From NCBI GenBank assembly GCA_964623775.1, contig CAZUVH010000005.1, forward strand, positions 1,546 through 65,545: a stretch of DNA of 64,000 bases. The letters are read 5' to 3'. Source of the DNA: an uncultured Candidatus Saccharibacteria bacterium. GTDB taxonomy: Bacteria; Patescibacteriota; Minisyncoccia; Phycocordibacterales; UBA2100. Below, one piece after another: positions 19,144 through 42,206 of this stretch; position 1 is the first letter of the stretch, and each line of letters starts with the position of its first letter. The notes below the pieces were generated by a model. That model was not told the origin of the DNA and did no database searches. It saw nothing but the letters and a program-made list of their open reading frames with translations. The translations under genes and the position numbers were made by a program.

Positions 19144-19206
19144 AAGATTTGACATAATTTCTTTTCAATTATATAATATTCCTAGCGTTCGCAAAGGGAG
19201 CTGTCG

Positions 19207-19521
19207 ATGACAGAAGCAAGTGAAGTAGAGGCCTTGAAATCCAGGGTTGCCAGTGCTCTCAAGGTCGCGGAGTCGTTCGGAGCGTTCGACGGCGCCCACC
19301 ACAAGATGTGGGTGATCGACCAGATGGTCCGCACACTGACAGGCTGTCCCTTTGTTCAGAAAGAACGGCCGTATCGCGAGCACGGTGATCGTGGAAAGGA
19401 ACTTACCCACAAATACTCTACGCTTGGCGAGTCGCCCGAATATCTCGCTTTCGTCGCGAAGTTTGACGAAGACGACGAGGGCGAAAAAAACAATGGCTGG
19501 GATGTAGGCGTAGCGCCCTAA
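19207..19521 (+). CDS. Hypothetical protein, 104 aa
   Basis: RBS GGGAG. Strong terminator AGGAGGTCTCAAATTGAGACCTCCTTTTTTTT at 19525-19557. Confidence 0.5.
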   Translation: MTEASEVEALKSRVASALKVAESFGAFDGAHHKMWVIDQMVRTLTGCPFVQKERPYREHGDRGKELTHKYSTLGESPEYLAFVAKFDEDDEGEKNNGWDVGVAP

Positions 19522-19669
19522 ACAAGGAGGTCTCAATTTGAGACCTCCTTTTTTTATCGGCACTGGGACTCGGTAAAAATCACGAACACATCAACCGTCT
19601 TACGCATAAATAGAGCTGTTGGACATTAACTACATTATTCATACGCATATACGTACGTTTAATGTAGAC

Positions 19670-34802: not shown

Positions 34803-37304
34803 CTACTTTTTCTTCTCGGAGTCAATCTCTTCTTGCGCTTCAAATACGACGAATGATGCGAGCGAATCCCCTTCGCGCATTTTCATGACGCGGACGCCTT
34901 GTGTAGCGCGTGAGAGTGTCGGGATCTCATCGAGGCCCGTGCGGATGGTCTGGGATTTCTTGGACATCGCGACCAATTCACCATCGCCGAGAATGACTGA
35001 TGCACCGACAAGCTGCTTGGTCTTTGCGGTGATCGACATCGTCTTGATACCACTACCGCCTCGGCCTTGTATTTTGTATTCAGAAAGTTTGGTCTTCTTG
35101 CCATAGCCGCTCGAAGATACCGCGAGCAATTCTGCGTCTTTGGCATCTTTGGGTACGACGCCAGTGCCGACGATCGTGTCGCCACCACCGAGCTTGATAC
35201 CGCGCACGCCTGCCGCCTGGCGGCCCATTTCGCGCACATCTTTTTCATCAAATCGAATCGCCTGCCCTTTGGCCGTGACGAGGACGACGCTATCGCCTTT
35301 TTTTACGAAAGAAGCGGAGATGAGCGCGTCACCCTTGTCGAGATTGATCGCGATAAGCCCTGAGCGGCGGACTTCGTAGAATTTATTGGCGGCTACTTTC
35401 TTCACCGTACCGTCTTTGGTCGCCATGACGAGCGCGAGGCCTTCCACGACTTTCTTTTCCTTTGGCATCGCGAGGATCGAGGTGATCTGTTCATCCTGCT
35501 CAAGCGAGAGGAAATTCATGATCGACTTGCCTTTGGTCGCGCGCTTACCCTCTGGAAGATCGTACATCTTGAGCTGGTACACCTTGCCGCGATTCGAGAA
35601 AAAGAGGAGATCCGAGTGCGCGCTCGCCGTGAGGAATTGCGTCACGAAGTCCTCTTCTTTTGTATCAAGATCAACGACACCGACGCCGCCGCGCTTCTGA
35701 CGACGATACTCTGCCGGATTCGTGCGCTTGATATACCCACCGGATGTAAGTACGAGTACGGAATCTTCGTCGGCAATCAAATCTTCGGCCGAAAGGATGG
35801 TCGCGCCGCGCTTCACGATCTTGGTGCGGCGATCATCGCCGTATTTTTCGATGACTTCATTGATCTCTTTGGTGATGAGCGCCATCATCTTTTTTTCTGA
35901 CTTGAGAAGGGAAGTCAGATATTCGATCGCGGCCTGTACTTCGGCGAGCTCATCTTCGATCTTCTTGCGCTCGAGGCCAGAGAGGCGCTGGAGGCGCATT
36001 TCGAGGATCGCATTCGCCTGAATTTCAGAGAATTTGAATTTGCTCATGAGGCCGGCGCGGGCATCATCGGTATCTTTGGATTTCTTGATCAACTTAATGA
36101 TCTCGTCGATGTGATCGAGCGCCTTGGAGAGGCCGAGCAGAATATGCTCGCGCGCCTTCGCCTTTTCGAGGTCGAATTTCGTGCGGCGCGTAACCACTTC
36201 TTTGCGGTGCGCGATGAAGTATTCGAGCAGAGCCTTGAGCGAAAGTGTCTGGGGTACGCCATCGACGAGTGCGAGGACGTTGTAGTGGAAGGTGTCTTCG
36301 AGCTGCGTGTGTTTGTATAGGTAATTGAGCACCGTCTGGGCGTTGGCATTATTTTTAAGCTCGATCACGATGCGGATGTCTTTTGCAGATTCATCACGGA
36401 TGTCGCGGATGCCCTCGAGCTTCTTCTCGTGGACGAGGTCAGCAATTTTTGTAATCAAATCTGCCTTGACGACGCGATAGGGAATTGAGGTAACGATGAT
36501 TTGATAATCCCCTTTCTTCCCTTCTACGATTTCGGCATCGCCGCGCACAACGACCGGCCCGCGACCTGTCGAGTACGCGTGCTTAATGTCAGTCTGGTTG
36601 AAAGCGATGCAGCCGGTAGGGAAATCTGGTCCTTGTACAAACTGCATGAGATCTTCGGTCGTGGCATCAGGATTTTCGATGAGATGAATCGCAGCGGTGC
36701 ATACTTCTCGCAAATTATGCGGCGGGATGTTGGTCGCCATACCGACAGCGATGCCGAGTGTGCCATTCAAAAGAAGATTCGGGATCGCGGCAGGAAGTAC
36801 CGACGGCTCTTTTTTGGTGTTGTCATAATTCGGGCGGAAGTCGACAGTCTCCTTCTCGATATCCTTGAGCATCTCCCCTGCCAATTTGGACATTTTTGCC
36901 TCGGTATAACGGTATGCGGCTGCGCCGTCGCCGTCGATCGAGCCGAAGTTGCCCTGGCCGATGATGAGCGGATAGCGCATCGTAAAATCCTGCGCCATCT
37001 TGACCATCGAGTCGTACACCGCGACGTCGCCGTGCGGGTGGTATTTACCGATCACGTCGCCCACCACGGTAGCTGATTTGCGCGTCTTGGCACCTGAGTG
37101 GAGTCCCGCTTCGAGCATGGCGTAGAGAATGCGGCGGTGCACCGGCTTCAAGCCATCGCGCACATCCGGAAGCGCGCGGGCGGTGATGACGGTCATCGCA
37201 TAGTCGAGATACGACTCGCGCATTTCTGTCGTGATAGAACGCGACACAATTCCTTTTACGGGCACCGGATTTTCTGGTGCCTTTGCGTCTTTTTTCGCCG
37301 CCAT
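34803..37304 (-). CDS. gyrA: DNA gyrase subunit A
   Basis: 833 aa. Active-site region AAMRYTE-like ([10 protein letters not shown]). QRDR-like block [14 protein letters not shown]-terminal beta-pinwheel repeats. Confidence 0.92.
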
Positions 37305-37344
37305 ATTTTCACGATTCTATCACAAAATGAGCCCTATTTCACGC

Positions 37345-37373
37345 TTGACAGTGCCATGTTGTGGTGCTATAAT
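37345..37373 (+). promoter_or_regulatory. Perfect sigma70 consensus promoter
   Basis: TTGACA-17 nt-TATAAT. Confidence 0.7.
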
Positions 37374-37402
37374 GTAAATTGGAACATCAAGGGAGGAGCT
37401 CC

Positions 37403-37735
37403 ATGACTGAGCCGTTTGTCTGGTGTCGTAGGTATTCGTATTTCCAGAAAAAGGAAAACGACCAAGTGTACCACCCTACTCACCTTCCGCCTGCCGGTTC
37501 GGTCGCTCGCTCCGAACCGAGAAAGGCAAAAACTCGGCCGGTGTTGAAGTCGGTCGAATCCCACGAGGATGACTGCATTCGCCTTCCCTCGCACAGCTCC
37601 CACAAGTGGACTGAGAGCGAAGGAGAGCGCGAGTGGTCGTTCAGCAATGACGTCAATTGCTGGAAAACCCAACGCCGCTCGAAGTGGCGCCGCACCAGGA
37701 GCTGCACCATTCTGCCGTCGGAGGTTCGTGTCTGA
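37403..37735 (+). other. Small ORF (110 aa, W/R/S/C-rich, no hydrophobic core) or roughly 400-nt ncRNA, driven by the consensus promoter
   Basis: AAGGGAGGAG RBS + ATG. Translation looks non-protein-like. Enclosed by promoter and strong terminator. Confidence 0.35.
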
Positions 37736-37750
37736 GCTTTTCTCACATTC

Positions 37751-37791
37751 GCCGCCGCGCATCTTCGGATGTCGCGGCGGTTTCTTTTTTT
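37751..37791 (+). terminator. Strong rho-independent terminator with UUCG tetraloop
   Basis: CCGCCGCGCATC-TTCG-GATGTCGCGGCGG-TTTCTTTTTTT. Confidence 0.8.
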
Positions 37792-37885
37792 AAAAAATGA
37801 GGGATCTATTGACAACCTGACAACTGGTTGTACTGTGCATTTAGTTGCTTTCGATGCGTACAAACAAGAAAACTGGAGAACCGTG

Positions 37886-38041
37886 ATGTGCAATGAAATG
37901 AAGAAAGTGGGCCGATACGAGAAAATACGTGCAGAAGAGAGGCAGGCAAAAATCTTTCTGTACGGCTGTGCAGTTGTCATCACACTCGTGACCGGCATCT
38001 ACATGTTCCTACAGAATTCTCCTGCACCTTCGATTCACTGA
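37886..38041 (+). CDS. Hypothetical 51-aa membrane peptide
   Basis: GGAG RBS. Single TM. Followed by the bidirectional terminator at 38056-38090. Confidence 0.35.
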   Translation: MCNEMKKVGRYEKIRAEERQAKIFLYGCAVVITLVTGIYMFLQNSPAPSIH

Positions 38042-38055
38042 GGTGCAGTGCCCCG

Positions 38056-38090
38056 ACCGCCGCGTCCACGGACGCGGCGGTATTTTTTTT
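38056..38090. terminator. Bidirectional terminator
   Basis: ACCGCCGCGTCC-ACG-GACGCGGCGGT-ATTTTTTTT. Confidence 0.75.
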
Positions 38091-38475
38091 AAATACCGTT
38101 AGGATTAATGAATTGGTTGGTATCCGATTCCCCCACCTGCATCACCGTCTGCTGCTGCACCGCACCACTAGAATTATTTTGATTGCGTAGATCCTGAAGA
38201 TCCTGATTTGATTCTGCACCACGATTATTGATCATCTGCTGCGCCTCTCGGACAGACGTCGGATTGAAATCATTCTGCGCACCGCTGTCGATCTGCATCT
38301 GTTGCGAATTGTTCCTTATTTTCTGTATGAAAAAATACCCCCACGCGATCATGAGGATGATGACGACCGTGATCGCGATGCCGCCTGCGACCACCTTCTT
38401 TTCGTCCTTTTCATTATTCCCTCCCGCGGCTTTCTCGATTCCGGTCTGGACCATCGAGTAATTATAACGCACCAA
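38089..38475 (-). CDS. Membrane-anchored Gln/Asn-rich hypothetical protein
   Basis: One TM helix. Low-complexity Q/N-rich C-terminal region. Confidence 0.4.
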   Translation of the reverse strand: MVRYNYSMVQTGIEKAAGGNNEKDEKKVVAGGIAITVVIILMIAWGYFFIQKIRNNSQQMQIDSGAQNDFNPTSVREAQQMINNRGAESNQDLQDLRNQNNSSGAVQQQTVMQVGESDTNQFINPNGI

Positions 38476-38528
38476 TGGCTTGAGGGGCCGTTGTTTGATA
38501 CAGTCGGGTGCAGGAAAGGGAGGTGCTC

Positions 38529-38774
38529 ATGCCAAAGCTTGAGAGTGGTTCGGAAGAAATCATCGTGAGTTTTCGTCGCGGGACGTCTGCGCAGAAAATC
38601 CTCGAACTCGTCGCGGCACAGAATTGCACGCTGCACAACAACTTTGACGGATCGACCCGCGTCAATATCGTCCTCGTCCCGGCAGGCAAACGGCAGGAGA
38701 TGATCAAAAAATTTCAGGCACTGCCCGAAGTCGAACGTGCCTACAGCGCCGGAACACCGACGTTTTTTTCATAA
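38529..38774 (+). CDS. Hypothetical protein, 81 aa
   Basis: AGGGAGG RBS. Terminator AACCTCGC...GCGAGGTT-TTCGTTT at 38781-38810. Confidence 0.5.
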   Translation: MPKLESGSEEIIVSFRRGTSAQKILELVAAQNCTLHNNFDGSTRVNIVLVPAGKRQEMIKKFQALPEVERAYSAGTPTFFS

Positions 38775-38817
38775 CACATTAACCTCGCCTCCACCGCGAG
38801 GTTTTCGTTTGCCAAGC

Positions 38818-39438
38818 TTAGGCCGCGAGCACGACGACATCGCCGTCTTTGCCCACCAGATCTTTGCGCTTGAGTGTGAGCTTATCTACCGGCTTCACAC
38901 CTTCGTCGCCTGCTTCTTTCAAAAATTGTTTGAGCGTCTTGTCGTCGTAGAGGATCGGGATGATGAGCTTGGCTTCGAGCTTCACGGCGAGCTTCGCTGC
39001 TTCTGCGGGATTGAGCGTGCCCTTGCCGCCGATCGGGATGATGAGAATATCGGGCGAATCCATTTCCAAAATTTCAGAAGGAAGATCGAGGTCGCCAAGC
39101 GCGCCCATGTACATCACATTGATATCATCGAAGAGCACCGAGTAGACTGTATTTATTTTCCCCTCACCACCATAGGTCGAGCCTGATGGGAATCCGGCGA
39201 CGGTCGTCTCTTTGACTTCGTACTCGCCAGCGCCATCGACGACAAAAGGCTGCTTGTCGCCACGACCAGCTTCTTCGGCACCGTTCATGTCAGGATGATT
39301 GAGTGAGATGAGTGCGACGTCCGCACCGAAATTCGTCGGTTTGAATTCTTTACTCTTCTTTGAGATCGGGCCAAATACGAGCGTCGTATCGCCCGCCACC
39401 GCCTTTACGCAACTACCTTCGTGGAATGTGAGAATCAT
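38818..39438 (-). CDS. MBL-fold metal-dependent hydrolase (UPF0173-like)
   Basis: MILTFHEGSCVKAVAGDTTLVFGP...SLNHPDM... metallo-beta-lactamase-fold pattern. Confidence 0.6.
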   Translation of the reverse strand: MILTFHEGSCVKAVAGDTTLVFGPISKKSKEFKPTNFGADVALISLNHPDMNGAEEAGRGDKQPFVVDGAGEYEVKETTVAGFPSGSTYGGEGKINTVYSVLFDDINVMYMGALGDLDLPSEILEMDSPDILIIPIGGKGTLNPAEAAKLAVKLEAKLIIPILYDDKTLKQFLKEAGDEGVKPVDKLTLKRKDLVGKDGDVVVLAA

Positions 39439-39528
39439 GCGGGCTAGTATACCGCGCAATCTTACAATTCGCACAGATTTGCAATATTACGTATTTATTG
39501 TATAATGGTCGCGGCAAAGGAGGATCCC

Positions 39529-39738
39529 ATGACCCCGGCTCAAATCGACGCCCTGCGACAAAGGTTTGCTGGGCACACCAACGTTTTGAAACTGATCGAT
39601 CACTTTGAGGAGAAAGATCCTCGCATTCTCGAATCACTCGGCTATATGACCGAGGAGGGTCTTCTGAAGTCCACGGGACTGCGCTTCACTGATATCGACA
39701 ACTTCAGTAAGGACGTGATGGAGAAGATCAAACGTTGA
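39529..39738 (+). CDS. Hypothetical protein, 69 aa
   Basis: AGGAGG RBS. Terminator AGCCCCCGG...CCGGGGGCT at 39751-39777. Confidence 0.5.
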   Translation: MTPAQIDALRQRFAGHTNVLKLIDHFEEKDPRILESLGYMTEEGLLKSTGLRFTDIDNFSKDVMEKIKR

Positions 39739-39910
39739 GAATCCTTACTCAGCCCCCGGAAATAACCCGGGGGCTTTGACTTTACTGGGCTCCTTCTATA
39801 TATTGTGTCCACGGGCTCAGGCCCGATTATTAATTAATAGTACGTTTGGGTAACGCTTCCCTTCCGATAGCCAAGGTAGCGCAAGAAGGATAGCCTCAAA
39901 CGAATCACAC

Positions 39911-41038
39911 ATGTCTACAGCAACATCCGCCCAAGGCGGATCGGCCCTGGGCCGAGACGAGAATGAGGAAGTTATATTAGAAAAGACCGGCCCAATGGCC
40001 GAGTTCTTGAAGATCGCTCCGGAGCCGCCGGTAATCGACGATGTCGTCGAGGGTCCGGTCATCGCGATCGGCCGCGCACGCGTATTCGTAGATCTCCACC
40101 CGTTTGGTACTGGTATCATCTATGGCCGCGAATACCTCTCGGCACGCGAGACTTTGAAGAATGTAAATATCGGCGACACGGTGACCGCCAAGGTCGTCGG
40201 CGCTGAAAATGAAGACGGCTACATCGAGCTCTCGCTCCGCGAAGCTCGCCAGGCACTCATCTGGAACGAAGCCGAGACAGCGATGCAGAAAAAGTCATCG
40301 TTCGAACTTGCAATCACCGATGCCAACAAGGGCGGTCTCATCATCAATTGGAACGGCATTCAGGGATTCCTCCCTGCATCGCAGCTCTCACCTGCTCACT
40401 ATCCGCGCGTCCCGGACGGCGATAAGGAGAAGATTTTTGCAGAGCTCAAGCGCATGGTCGGCACCAAGCTCGAGGTCATGATCATCACCGCAAATCCGAA
40501 AGAGCAGAAGCTCATCTTCAGCGAAAAGGGTGCGGGCGTATCCGAACGAGCATCGCTCGTCGAGAAGTATCACATCGGCGATGTCTTGGACGGCGTCGTT
40601 ACTGGTGCCACCGAATTCGGCGTCTTCGTAAAGATCGAAGAGGGATTGGAAGGACTCGTGCACATTTCCGAAATGGATTGGGCACTCGTCGAGAATCCGA
40701 AGAGCCGCTACAAGGCAGGCGATGCAGTCAAGGTGAAAGTCATCGAGATCAAAGACGACAAGATCTCTCTCTCAATCAAGGCACTCGTAGACGATCCGTG
40801 GAAGGCCGCAGGTGCGAAGTACAAGAAGGACGACAAGGTGGAAGCCGTCGTCATCAAGTACAACAAGCACGGCGCGCTCGCCTCGATCGAGGAAGGCGTC
40901 GCAGGATTGGTACACGTGTCCGAATACGGCACCGAGGACGAACTTCGCGCGAAGCTCGAGCTCGGCAAGGTGTATCCATTCACCATTACCTTCTTCGAAC
41001 CAAAAGATCGTCGCATGACTCTAAAGCCGGTTCAGTAA
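39911..41038 (+). CDS. rpsA: 30S ribosomal protein S1 (short, 4 S1 domains). Start uncertain
   Basis: Repeated S1-domain blocks GDVLDGVVTGATEFGVFVKI, GDAVKVKVIEIKDDKISLSIK. Terminator at 41061-41090. Confidence 0.8.
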   Translation: MSTATSAQGGSALGRDENEEVILEKTGPMAEFLKIAPEPPVIDDVVEGPVIAIGRARVFVDLHPFGTGIIYGREYLSARETLKNVNIGDTVTAKVVGAENEDGYIELSLREARQALIWNEAETAMQKKSSFELAITDANKGGLIINWNGIQGFLPASQLSPAHYPRVPDGDKEKIFAELKRMVGTKLEVMIITANPKEQKLIFSEKGAGVSERASLVEKYHIGDVLDGVVTGATEFGVFVKIEEGLEGLVHISEMDWALVENPKSRYKAGDAVKVKVIEIKDDKISLSIKALVDDPWKAAGAKYKKDDKVEAVVIKYNKHGALASIEEGVAGLVHVSEYGTEDELRAKLELGKVYPFTITFFEPKDRRMTLKPVQ

Positions 41039-41101
41039 ATCGATCTAACGATCAAAAAGAAAAACCGCCAGCGCAAGCTGGCGGTTTTTTGATCCGAGTC
41101 G

Positions 41102-41389
41102 CTACTCGGCGAATTTGCAATTCTGGATGAAAAGAACGAGCGGATTGATCGCGACCGCAGATATGTGGTCGGATACTGACGTGCCACCGATCTCATGTGC
41201 GAGTGATTCAATGTGATCAATTACCGCTTGCCGATAGCACCTATGCCGGCAGTCGCATATGTCGCCGACTTTCTCCAGTATCGCTTTTGCACGCCCGAGT
41301 CGGAGCTCCTCCGCCGAGAACGCTTTGTTGCGGTCGCGCGTCTCCCGTATGCGCGACTCAAAGATGTGAATGAGTGTTTGAAACTGCAT
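41102..41389 (-). CDS. Hypothetical protein, 95 aa
   Basis: Non-repetitive ORF between bidirectional terminator and an ambiguous upstream region. Confidence 0.4.
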   Translation of the reverse strand: MQFQTLIHIFESRIRETRDRNKAFSAEELRLGRAKAILEKVGDICDCRHRCYRQAVIDHIESLAHEIGGTSVSDHISAVAINPLVLFIQNCKFAE

Positions 41390-41885
41390 ATCAGCCTCCG
41401 AAGCATTCAGTGAGAAATGCGCGTACTCGGAATAAGGCGGGGAAACGCGAGCTGAGGAAATAGTGATTGTGTCCGCAATGACAAGTCAGATATTCGTTGT
41501 AGCCCGGGAATCCGTGCGCATAATCGATCGATACGTGAGGGCCGTGTCTCAAAAGATAGAGCGGCAATCTGCGCGGCGAACCATGTTTCGGATCACCAAC
41601 TGGCCATTCACCAAAATCGACCTCGCCGACCTGGATTGGAGCAAACAAGAGTCTGATTTGATTCCCACGCGAAATCTCCGAGGGTACGCGCGCTGCGGAA
41701 TGATCCTGCTTATGGAATTTTGCATACGCCCGATCTTTTCTGAAGGTCTCAGCGTCGATGATGCGGCCCATTTTTCTCTCCTATTGAACTGAGACAAGAG
41801 TACGTGGTATTTGATACGGGTCAATCTGTTTGACATGAATTTAAAAAATATGTATTGTAATAAAAGGAAATCAACGGAGACTCCC

Positions 41886-42206
41886 ATGAAAAACGCGCTT
41901 GTAATTGCAGTCTTACTATTCACACTGCCCGGCCCTGCCCTAGCAAGCGACAAGCCGCTCGAAGTAGTCTGCGTCCTCAAGGATGAGGCGGTCGCACGCA
42001 TCAACCTGTTTATCGATGGGTATCAGAGGTTGAGTGGGAAGATCCTCTCCGTAGAGGAGCGGGCCGACATGCTCTCTGACGCACAGAGCATGCTCCCCTC
42101 GTATCTGCGGGTCGTCGAGACCAAGGCGGATTGCCCCAAAGGCACGCGGATCTACCGCACGTCGACGGACCCCAATATCAGACCTCACTACGAGGACAAT
42201 AAATGA
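41886..42206 (+). CDS. Small secreted protein
   Basis: GGAG RBS. Signal peptide MKNALVIAVLLFTLPGPALASD. Terminator AAAGCCCCGAC-GAA-GTCGGGGCTTT at 42209-42240. Confidence 0.55.
   Translation: MKNALVIAVLLFTLPGPALASDKPLEVVCVLKDEAVARINLFIDGYQRLSGKILSVEERADMLSDAQSMLPSYLRVVETKADCPKGTRIYRTSTDPNIRPHYEDNK

Follow-up and report, generated by a model that had tools for sequence, protein, structure and literature searches.

Orphan genes are very common in CPR bacteria, and short ORFs are also found within larger regulatory RNAs such as SgrS, RNAIII and SR1, for which base-pairing targets have been identified. Structured RNAs can further be closed by a helix between their two ends, and P1 of RNase P RNA as well as the terminal stems of 6S and SRP RNAs are comparable helices of this kind. 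The RNase P RNAs of CPR bacteria can be diverged and score below the Rfam thresholds yet keep many conserved RNase P RNA features, and very low scores are needed to detect some of their genes (PMC8172020). Within a window of 64,000 nt, i.e., the whole stretch of DNA that was analyzed here, we studied an element at 37345-37791 that an earlier note had described as a stand-alone expression cassette while leaning toward a translated non-coding sequence or an ncRNA of ~400 nt. We favor a different reading and consider it probable that the element is a strain-specific orphan small protein gene, carried on a monocistronic mRNA with a strong promoter, of which the 110-aa product is probably poorly structured. 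This reading follows from the architecture of the cassette, the coding statistics of its ORF, the same pattern in sister cassettes of the window, the protein genes found in the corresponding slot of relatives and the absence of any matching RNA family.

The element resembles RNase P RNA (RF00010/RF00011 and the diverged CPR forms) in its length of ~370 nt, in a predicted terminal helix directly before the terminator, in its signals for high expression and in belonging to a CPR host where Rfam models can miss the gene. It differs from RNase P RNA in that there is no covariance model match at E<=10, that P4 strands like GGAAAGUCC or ACAGAA-CCGGCUUA are absent within 3 mismatches, that it is not syntenic in relatives and that it carries period-3 and codon signals. 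Scanning 37345-37791 for the two universally conserved P4 strands (CR-I GAGGAAAGUCCGGGC and CR-V ACAGAANCCGGCUUA) gave none within 3 mismatches, and neither RF00010/RF00011 nor the archaeal RNase P models matched at the gathering score or at E<=10, with weaker matches not being displayed. The element is similar in size to tmRNA (RF00023 and its permuted forms) and contains a GGUCGAAUCC string reminiscent of a T-loop, but it lacks both an acceptor/CCA end and a tag reading frame and is negative by ARAGORN and Rfam. The supposed T-loop-like element also does not hold up in its geometry because the loop of GGUCGAAUCC comprises 6 nt, as opposed to the 7 nt of a T-loop. ARAGORN found 9 tRNAs and zero tmRNA on the window, and the ARAGORN, Rfam and P4-motif scans all agree with the earlier view that this is neither a tmRNA nor an RNase P RNA.

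The scan with Rfam covariance models that had been proposed for the element was run with Rfam 15, which covers families including 6S, SRP, riboswitches, OLE, GOLLD, HEARO, ROOL and raiA. At the gathering score, only tRNAs and two Y-RNA-like matches were detected across the whole window, both of the latter away from the element, and at E<=10 the region 37250-37900 gave only chance-level matches (E 2.5-9, 13-15 bits), most of which fall on the terminator, so that the element fits no family at this threshold. A dual-function sRNA or mRNA like SgrS, RNAIII or SR1 would reconcile a structured transcript with a translated small ORF and thus both sets of signals described below. Unlike in these RNAs, the ORF of the element fills the transcript and no complementary target lies within 36900-38600, where a search for repeats or complementary targets returned only the similarity of one terminator to another.

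Elsewhere in the window, we observed a Ro60/Rsr orthologue at 12716-14368 on the minus strand (TROVE and vWA_Ro60, E 1e-41 and 5e-63) that is preceded by two tandem RNAs of ~68 nt (14444-14512 and 14533-14599, minus strand). Both pass the gathering score of RF01656 (47.5 and 46.8 bits), the family of nematode stem-bulge RNAs that are homologues of Y RNAs, and their stems (GGGCCGAAGUCAGAGGGUUAUC ... CCCUUUGACAUCAACUUGCC) appear to resemble closely the metazoan Ro60-binding helix, as in hY1. This genome thus has an Rsr gene that is accompanied by a pair of miniature Y RNAs, and Y RNAs adjoining rsr are already known in bacteria (PMC4201824).

All signals of the promoter-RBS-ORF-terminator cassette that the earlier note had described are present in the sequence (Table 1). 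Divergent from gyrA (34803-37304, minus strand), the promoter scan recovered the reported sigma-70 consensus at 12/12 positions (37345..37373, plus strand), with TTGACA at 37345-37350, a 17-nt spacer, TATAAT at 37368-37373 and an extended -10 formed by TG at 37365-37366. Perfect consensus sites would be expected by chance only ~0.016 times in 64 kb over both strands, based on arithmetic from base composition. The supposed rarity of such promoters is nonetheless not borne out in this genome, given that the window holds a second 12/12 site at 19149-19177 and two 11/12 sites (17249 and 34825 on the minus strand). Further downstream, AAGGGAGGAG at 37389-37398 places its GGAGG core 6 nt 5' of ATG 37403, which is an ideal spacing, so that both the start signal and the spanning open frame of a protein-coding gene are present in the cassette. 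The terminator hairpin (G37751-C37780) has a GC-rich, singly bulged stem of 13 bp that is capped by a UUCG loop (-24.7 kcal/mol, z -5.4) and was passed over by the automated terminator scan due to the bulge. It is followed not by the T8 tract reported earlier but by an interrupted U-tract, TTTCTTTTTTT, at 37781-37791. The strong local stems noted in the segment, as well as GGTCGAATCC, are likewise present.

Table 1. Features of the element and copies of its terminator stem in the window.
Feature	Coordinates	Strand	Remarks
Shine-Dalgarno (SD) AGGGAGGAG	37390..37398	+	Core GGAGG 37392-37396; GGGAGG-N6-ATG-AC pattern also at the 19149 and 34825(-) cassettes
ORF110	37403..37735	+	110 codons, stop TGA 37733-37735; ends 15 nt 5' of terminator stem
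Panhandle 5' arm (predicted)	37390..37415	+	Covers SD and start codon
Panhandle 3' arm (predicted)	37718..37745	+	Covers last codons, stop codon and 10 nt downstream
Intrinsic terminator	37751..37791	+	Bulged 13-bp stem, UUCG loop, then UUUCUUUUUUU
Copies of CGCGGCGGT	20344, 28908, 31646, 37773, 38056, 38073, 42412, 48345

The 3' arm of the terminator, CGCGGCGGT, recurs as 8 copies in the window where 1.2 would be expected. The copies at 37773 and at 38056/38073 make up intrinsic terminator stems, and the adjacent terminators 37751-37791 and 38056-38090 share it.

ORF110 encodes a basic protein of 110 aa that is rich in Ser, Arg, Glu, Pro and Trp, and its residue counts (S14, R13, E10, P8, W5 and C4, with scarce A3, G2, L4 and I2) agree with the odd, Trp/Arg/Ser/Cys-rich composition that had been noticed before. 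Several statistics point to coding in the frame defined by the SD, which is open with p=0.038 given the dinucleotide content and shows a period-3 power of 2.12 vs 0.73 in shuffles (p 0.011) as well as an excess of GC3 (GC1/2/3 = 0.51/0.51/0.69; p 0.024). When the amino-acid composition is removed, the synonymous-only codon score of 0.065 is ordinary for the genes of this genome (0.093+-0.097) and exceeds the 95th percentile (0.045) of off-frame sequence (-0.098+-0.089). The total codon score of -0.017 lies under the 5th percentile of real-gene chunks (0.069; mean 0.29) and over the off-frame mean (-0.33). Stop codons are depleted across all six frames of the element, with 14 vs 27.6+-4.2 expected. 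A prediction of ORF110 with AlphaFold2 from the single sequence and without an alignment gave a pLDDT of 46.5, which is uninformative for a single sequence and not supportive. Neither ORF110 nor the ORFs overlapping it are part of a collection of 15 billion proteins, though the GyrA of the same MAG is present there, and the gene caller therefore apparently skipped ORF110.

No family was found for ORF110 in Pfam, PHROGs, NCBIfam or PADLOC, no match in the PDB and none among 5.8 billion protein clusters. Scans of genome, metagenome and viral collections with back-translated patterns revealed no relative of the element, and blastn against phages and plasmids found nothing. For synteny, we used 165 gyrA loci of related Parcubacteria (1.2 Mb) with GyrA identities from 94% down to ~66%, in which blastn, nhmmer and tblastx with the element returned terminator-like matches only. 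Two kinds of candidates were rejected: three phmmer matches of ORF110 in 1.84 billion representatives, which are eukaryote-like tandem-repeat proteins with many summed stretches and were judged spurious, and a likeness around RPVLK..HE[ED] to the slot protein of locus L003, which is attributable to chance (E 0.46). The cross-genome comparison for a conserved protein or RNA structure that the earlier note had suggested thus yielded no relative in the collections or the 165 loci.

The genome is that of a Candidatus Kaiserbacteria member, and the closest relatives of its GyrA belong to Candidatus Kaiserbacteria and other Parcubacteria/Paceibacteria. Around gyrA, the local gene order runs from a methyltransferase over small ORFs, gyrA and the element to a 51-aa membrane-peptide ORF, a conserved 128-aa membrane protein, Lactamase_B_3 and an S1-domain protein. 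From relative to relative, the slot between gyrA and the conserved gene for a membrane protein of 120 aa almost always has a different content. It is vacant in L004 and holds a 71-aa membrane protein, a 55-aa peptide and a YdjM-like protein in L001, a 119-aa protein and a Y1-transposase-like gene in L002, a 142-aa protein in L003 and a 255-aa protein with a Nudix-box-like motif in L021, and elsewhere a signal-peptide protein (L008), a membrane protein (L043) or a pilin-like protein (L077). Wherever the slot cargo of relatives was readable, it was a protein gene, and comparable promoters and SDs precede some of these genes. In 20 relatives, no Rfam RNA was found at a distance of up to 3 kb from gyrA.

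The comparison with L001, the closest relative (GyrA 94%), shows high identity from the gyrA start through the divergent promoter to its TATAAT, with TTGACT-17-TATAAT as the promoter counterpart, while the body downstream is unrelated with identity at random level. Identity resumes at a second promoter island (window 37808-37850) that reads ATTGACAAC.T.ACAA.TGGTTGTAC. These shared promoter islands around an unrelated body mark the element as exchangeable or rapidly remodeled cargo of which the promoter was retained.

The island at 37808-37850 on the plus strand (~2500-2545 on the minus strand of L001) is the promoter of the next cassette, which comprises the 51-aa membrane-peptide ORF at 37886-38041. 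It is conserved with L001 even though the bodies on either side of it differ, and an inverted repeat (ACAACC-N8-GGTTGT) over its -35 and spacer could be an operator. In some relatives, gyrA is flanked by proteins related to Y1 (IS200/RAYT-like) transposases with weak or faint Pfam matches (L002 1754-2425 and 5583-6239; L004/L005 5522-6190), and these could be linked to the turnover of the gyrA neighborhood; the ORFs inspected near gyrA in the window include no Y1-like gene. The gyrA gene itself is apparently leaderless, with GTGAAA-17-TAGAAT at 37314-37342 on the minus strand and the -10 box ~8 nt before its ATG. Many other genes of the window lack an SD and have a TATAAT-like box at a distance of 6-12 nt from the ATG on its 5' side, and about a third have a clear SD, so that this genome seems to mix two modes of initiation.

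Two further cassettes of the window follow the same plan as the ORF110 unit, and both plainly encode small proteins. The one at 19149-19556 (plus strand) combines a 12/12 TTGACA-17-TATAAT promoter with AAGGGAG-N6-ATG-ACA, an ATG at 19207 and a 12-bp terminator, and its ORF of 104 aa (MTEASEVEALKSR...) has a codon score of 0.31, i.e., normal usage. This 104-aa ORF has no Pfam family and is unmatched in the 165 gyrA loci, where an unlinked gene would not be expected. The other (34825-34530, minus strand) starts from an 11/12 promoter overlapping the end of gyrA and continues with GGGGAGG-CAGTCC-ATG-ACA into an ORF of 74 aa. The latter (ATG 34755) stands in tandem with a second small ORF of ~71 aa (ATG 34517) within 34825-34305, and homologues of the two are found downstream of gyrA in L001 with 38% and 37% identity. 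Both share a terminal ...TRGYV motif and look like paralogues.

Like the ORF110 unit, these sister cassettes, which exemplify the stand-alone small ORFan genes in variable islets of CPR genomes, feature a consensus or near-consensus promoter, a leader of ~20-30 nt, a GGGAGG-type SD, an ATG-AC start, ~70-110 codons and an intrinsic terminator, and they have no Pfam family. They differ from ORF110 in their more ordinary composition with codon scores of 0.31 and 0.14 and, in one case, in having a homologue in L001, whereas the ORF110 unit has a stronger predicted helix between its 5' and 3' ends and no homologue.

While the signals, the open frame, the codon and period-3 statistics, the lack of relatives and the variable slot are directly observed, the transcription and translation of ORF110, any function of its protein and the role of the predicted panhandle are inferred. 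Pointing away from the promoter of the leaderless gyrA, the consensus promoter with its extended -10 would start transcription near 37380, and the strong SD and ATG 37403 would direct the translation of ORF110, which would fill the transcript and stop 15 nt before the intrinsic terminator. The helix between the regions of the SD and start codon and of the stop codon may stabilize the mRNA or dampen translation. The whole unit occupies, as variable cargo, the hypervariable slot that separates gyrA from the conserved small membrane-protein gene. Counted against this reading are the atypical composition, the low total codon score and the absence from the protein collection, the lack of homologues and thus of evidence for purifying selection, the low pLDDT, the predicted pairing of the SD and the fold of the body.

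This fold leads to the alternative that the element is a strain-specific structured ncRNA of ~370 nt or a dual-function RNA in which the ORF is incidental and the GGGAGGAGCUC "RBS" is one strand of a closing helix with the 3' end, which we consider rather unlikely. The body folds with a z of -2.9 to -3.0 on the plus strand vs -0.6 on the minus strand and -1.5 to +0.6 for four comparator mRNAs of the window, but z<=-3 is met in 12% of the background windows of this genome and the two halves of the element folded separately only reach z -0.4 and -1.3. The excess derives from a single long-range helix that is predicted to join the 5' and 3' ends (p ~0.02), with predicted pair probabilities of 0.87-1.0 between 37391-37401 and 37734-37744, a duplex of -29.0 kcal/mol (p 0.019 vs shuffled 3' ends; equally good pairing is reached by 0.6% of genomic 40-mers) and the SD base-paired at a predicted probability of >=0.98. 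An RNA gene would also fit the depletion of stops in all six frames, the un-protein-like composition of an ORF that the gene caller apparently skipped and the existence of diverged, sub-threshold RNase P RNAs in CPR genomes (PMC8172020). It is at odds with the failure to find an Rfam family at E<=10, a tmRNA or the P4 motifs, and absence of the element from L001 and the 165 gyrA loci is unlike a housekeeping RNA at a syntenic site. Moreover, the period-3 signal, the GC3 excess and the native synonymous codons fall in exactly the SD-defined frame, which is not expected of an RNA gene. With no Rfam match, no homologue in which structure could be tested and a fold z of -2.9 that 12% of ordinary windows of the genome reach as well, the lean of the earlier note toward ncRNA is thus not supported, though the odd amino-acid composition and the predicted SD-sequestering helix keep an RNA alive as a minority option. 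Its most specific version, in which an undescribed, lineage-restricted structured RNA of ~370 nt, possibly dual-function, would be expressed at very high levels as exchangeable cargo of the gyrA slot with an SD-like site masked by the terminal helix, appears similarly unlikely. If true, an RNA would mean a new class of large ncRNA from CPR bacteria, but nothing testable here supports it.

It is also unlikely that the element represents a proto-gene of very recent origin or mere transcribed filler, in which sequence recently captured or scrambled in a recombination-prone slot sits behind a conserved promoter, with an ORF open largely by chance and a product without selected function. Such an origin would explain why it is a singleton in all searches, why the slot content varies in almost all relatives with the promoter islands alone shared with L001, and why composition and total codon score are odd, and the independent contigs of SRR12822863 in Logan, which break at 36957 and 37482, suggest local micro-heterogeneity. 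Yet the open frame, with its chance of 0.038, begins at a strong SD-ATG and closes right ahead of the terminator, host-like synonymous codon use argues against freshly imported or random sequence, and the mutually complementary 5' and 3' ends argue for one coherent unit. The same contig breaks, together with a rise in GC near 37482, would also fit an assembly chimera in which two strain variants had been joined there into an artificial ORF, but we regard this as very improbable. Contig SRR12822863_34785 starts exactly at 37482 and matches the window over 37482-42041 (4,560 nt) at 100%, the frame is open across 37482 and the 5' part is predicted to pair with the very 3' end of the unit. In addition, any minor variant is enough to interrupt a de Bruijn contig. 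Contig SRR12822863_62652 ends at 36957 inside gyrA, which together with _34785 leaves ~524 nt unplaced and points to differences between strains in the gyrA 5' end and the promoter region of what is evidently the same population. Finally, a true gene could lie on the minus strand, co-directional with gyrA, either as an ORF of 131 aa (37367..37762) that is stop-free with a more protein-like Ala/Leu/Gly/Val/Arg composition or as an ORF of 172 aa (37480..37998). We find this hardly credible given that the 131-aa ORF has no promoter or SD, that its start falls inside the terminator hairpin and that its codon (-0.10) and synonymous (-0.123) scores are off-frame-like. Furthermore, the antisense ORFs have no Pfam, PHROG, NCBIfam or PADLOC family, the 131-aa ORF has no homologue and the latter is the exact codon-for-codon antisense frame of the GC3-rich ORF110; antisense frames of GC3-rich ORFs are a known source of spurious open frames.

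As an orphan small protein gene, the ORF110 unit alone matters little and would be one more of its kind in a CPR genome. Its perfect promoter and strong RBS are no curiosity, as this is how stand-alone small genes are normally equipped in this genome. The site just upstream of gyrA emerges as a hotspot of small-gene swapping or rapid remodeling in Kaiserbacteria where the promoter islands are kept, and this slot could serve for studies of how genes turn over, or are born de novo, in episymbiotic bacteria.
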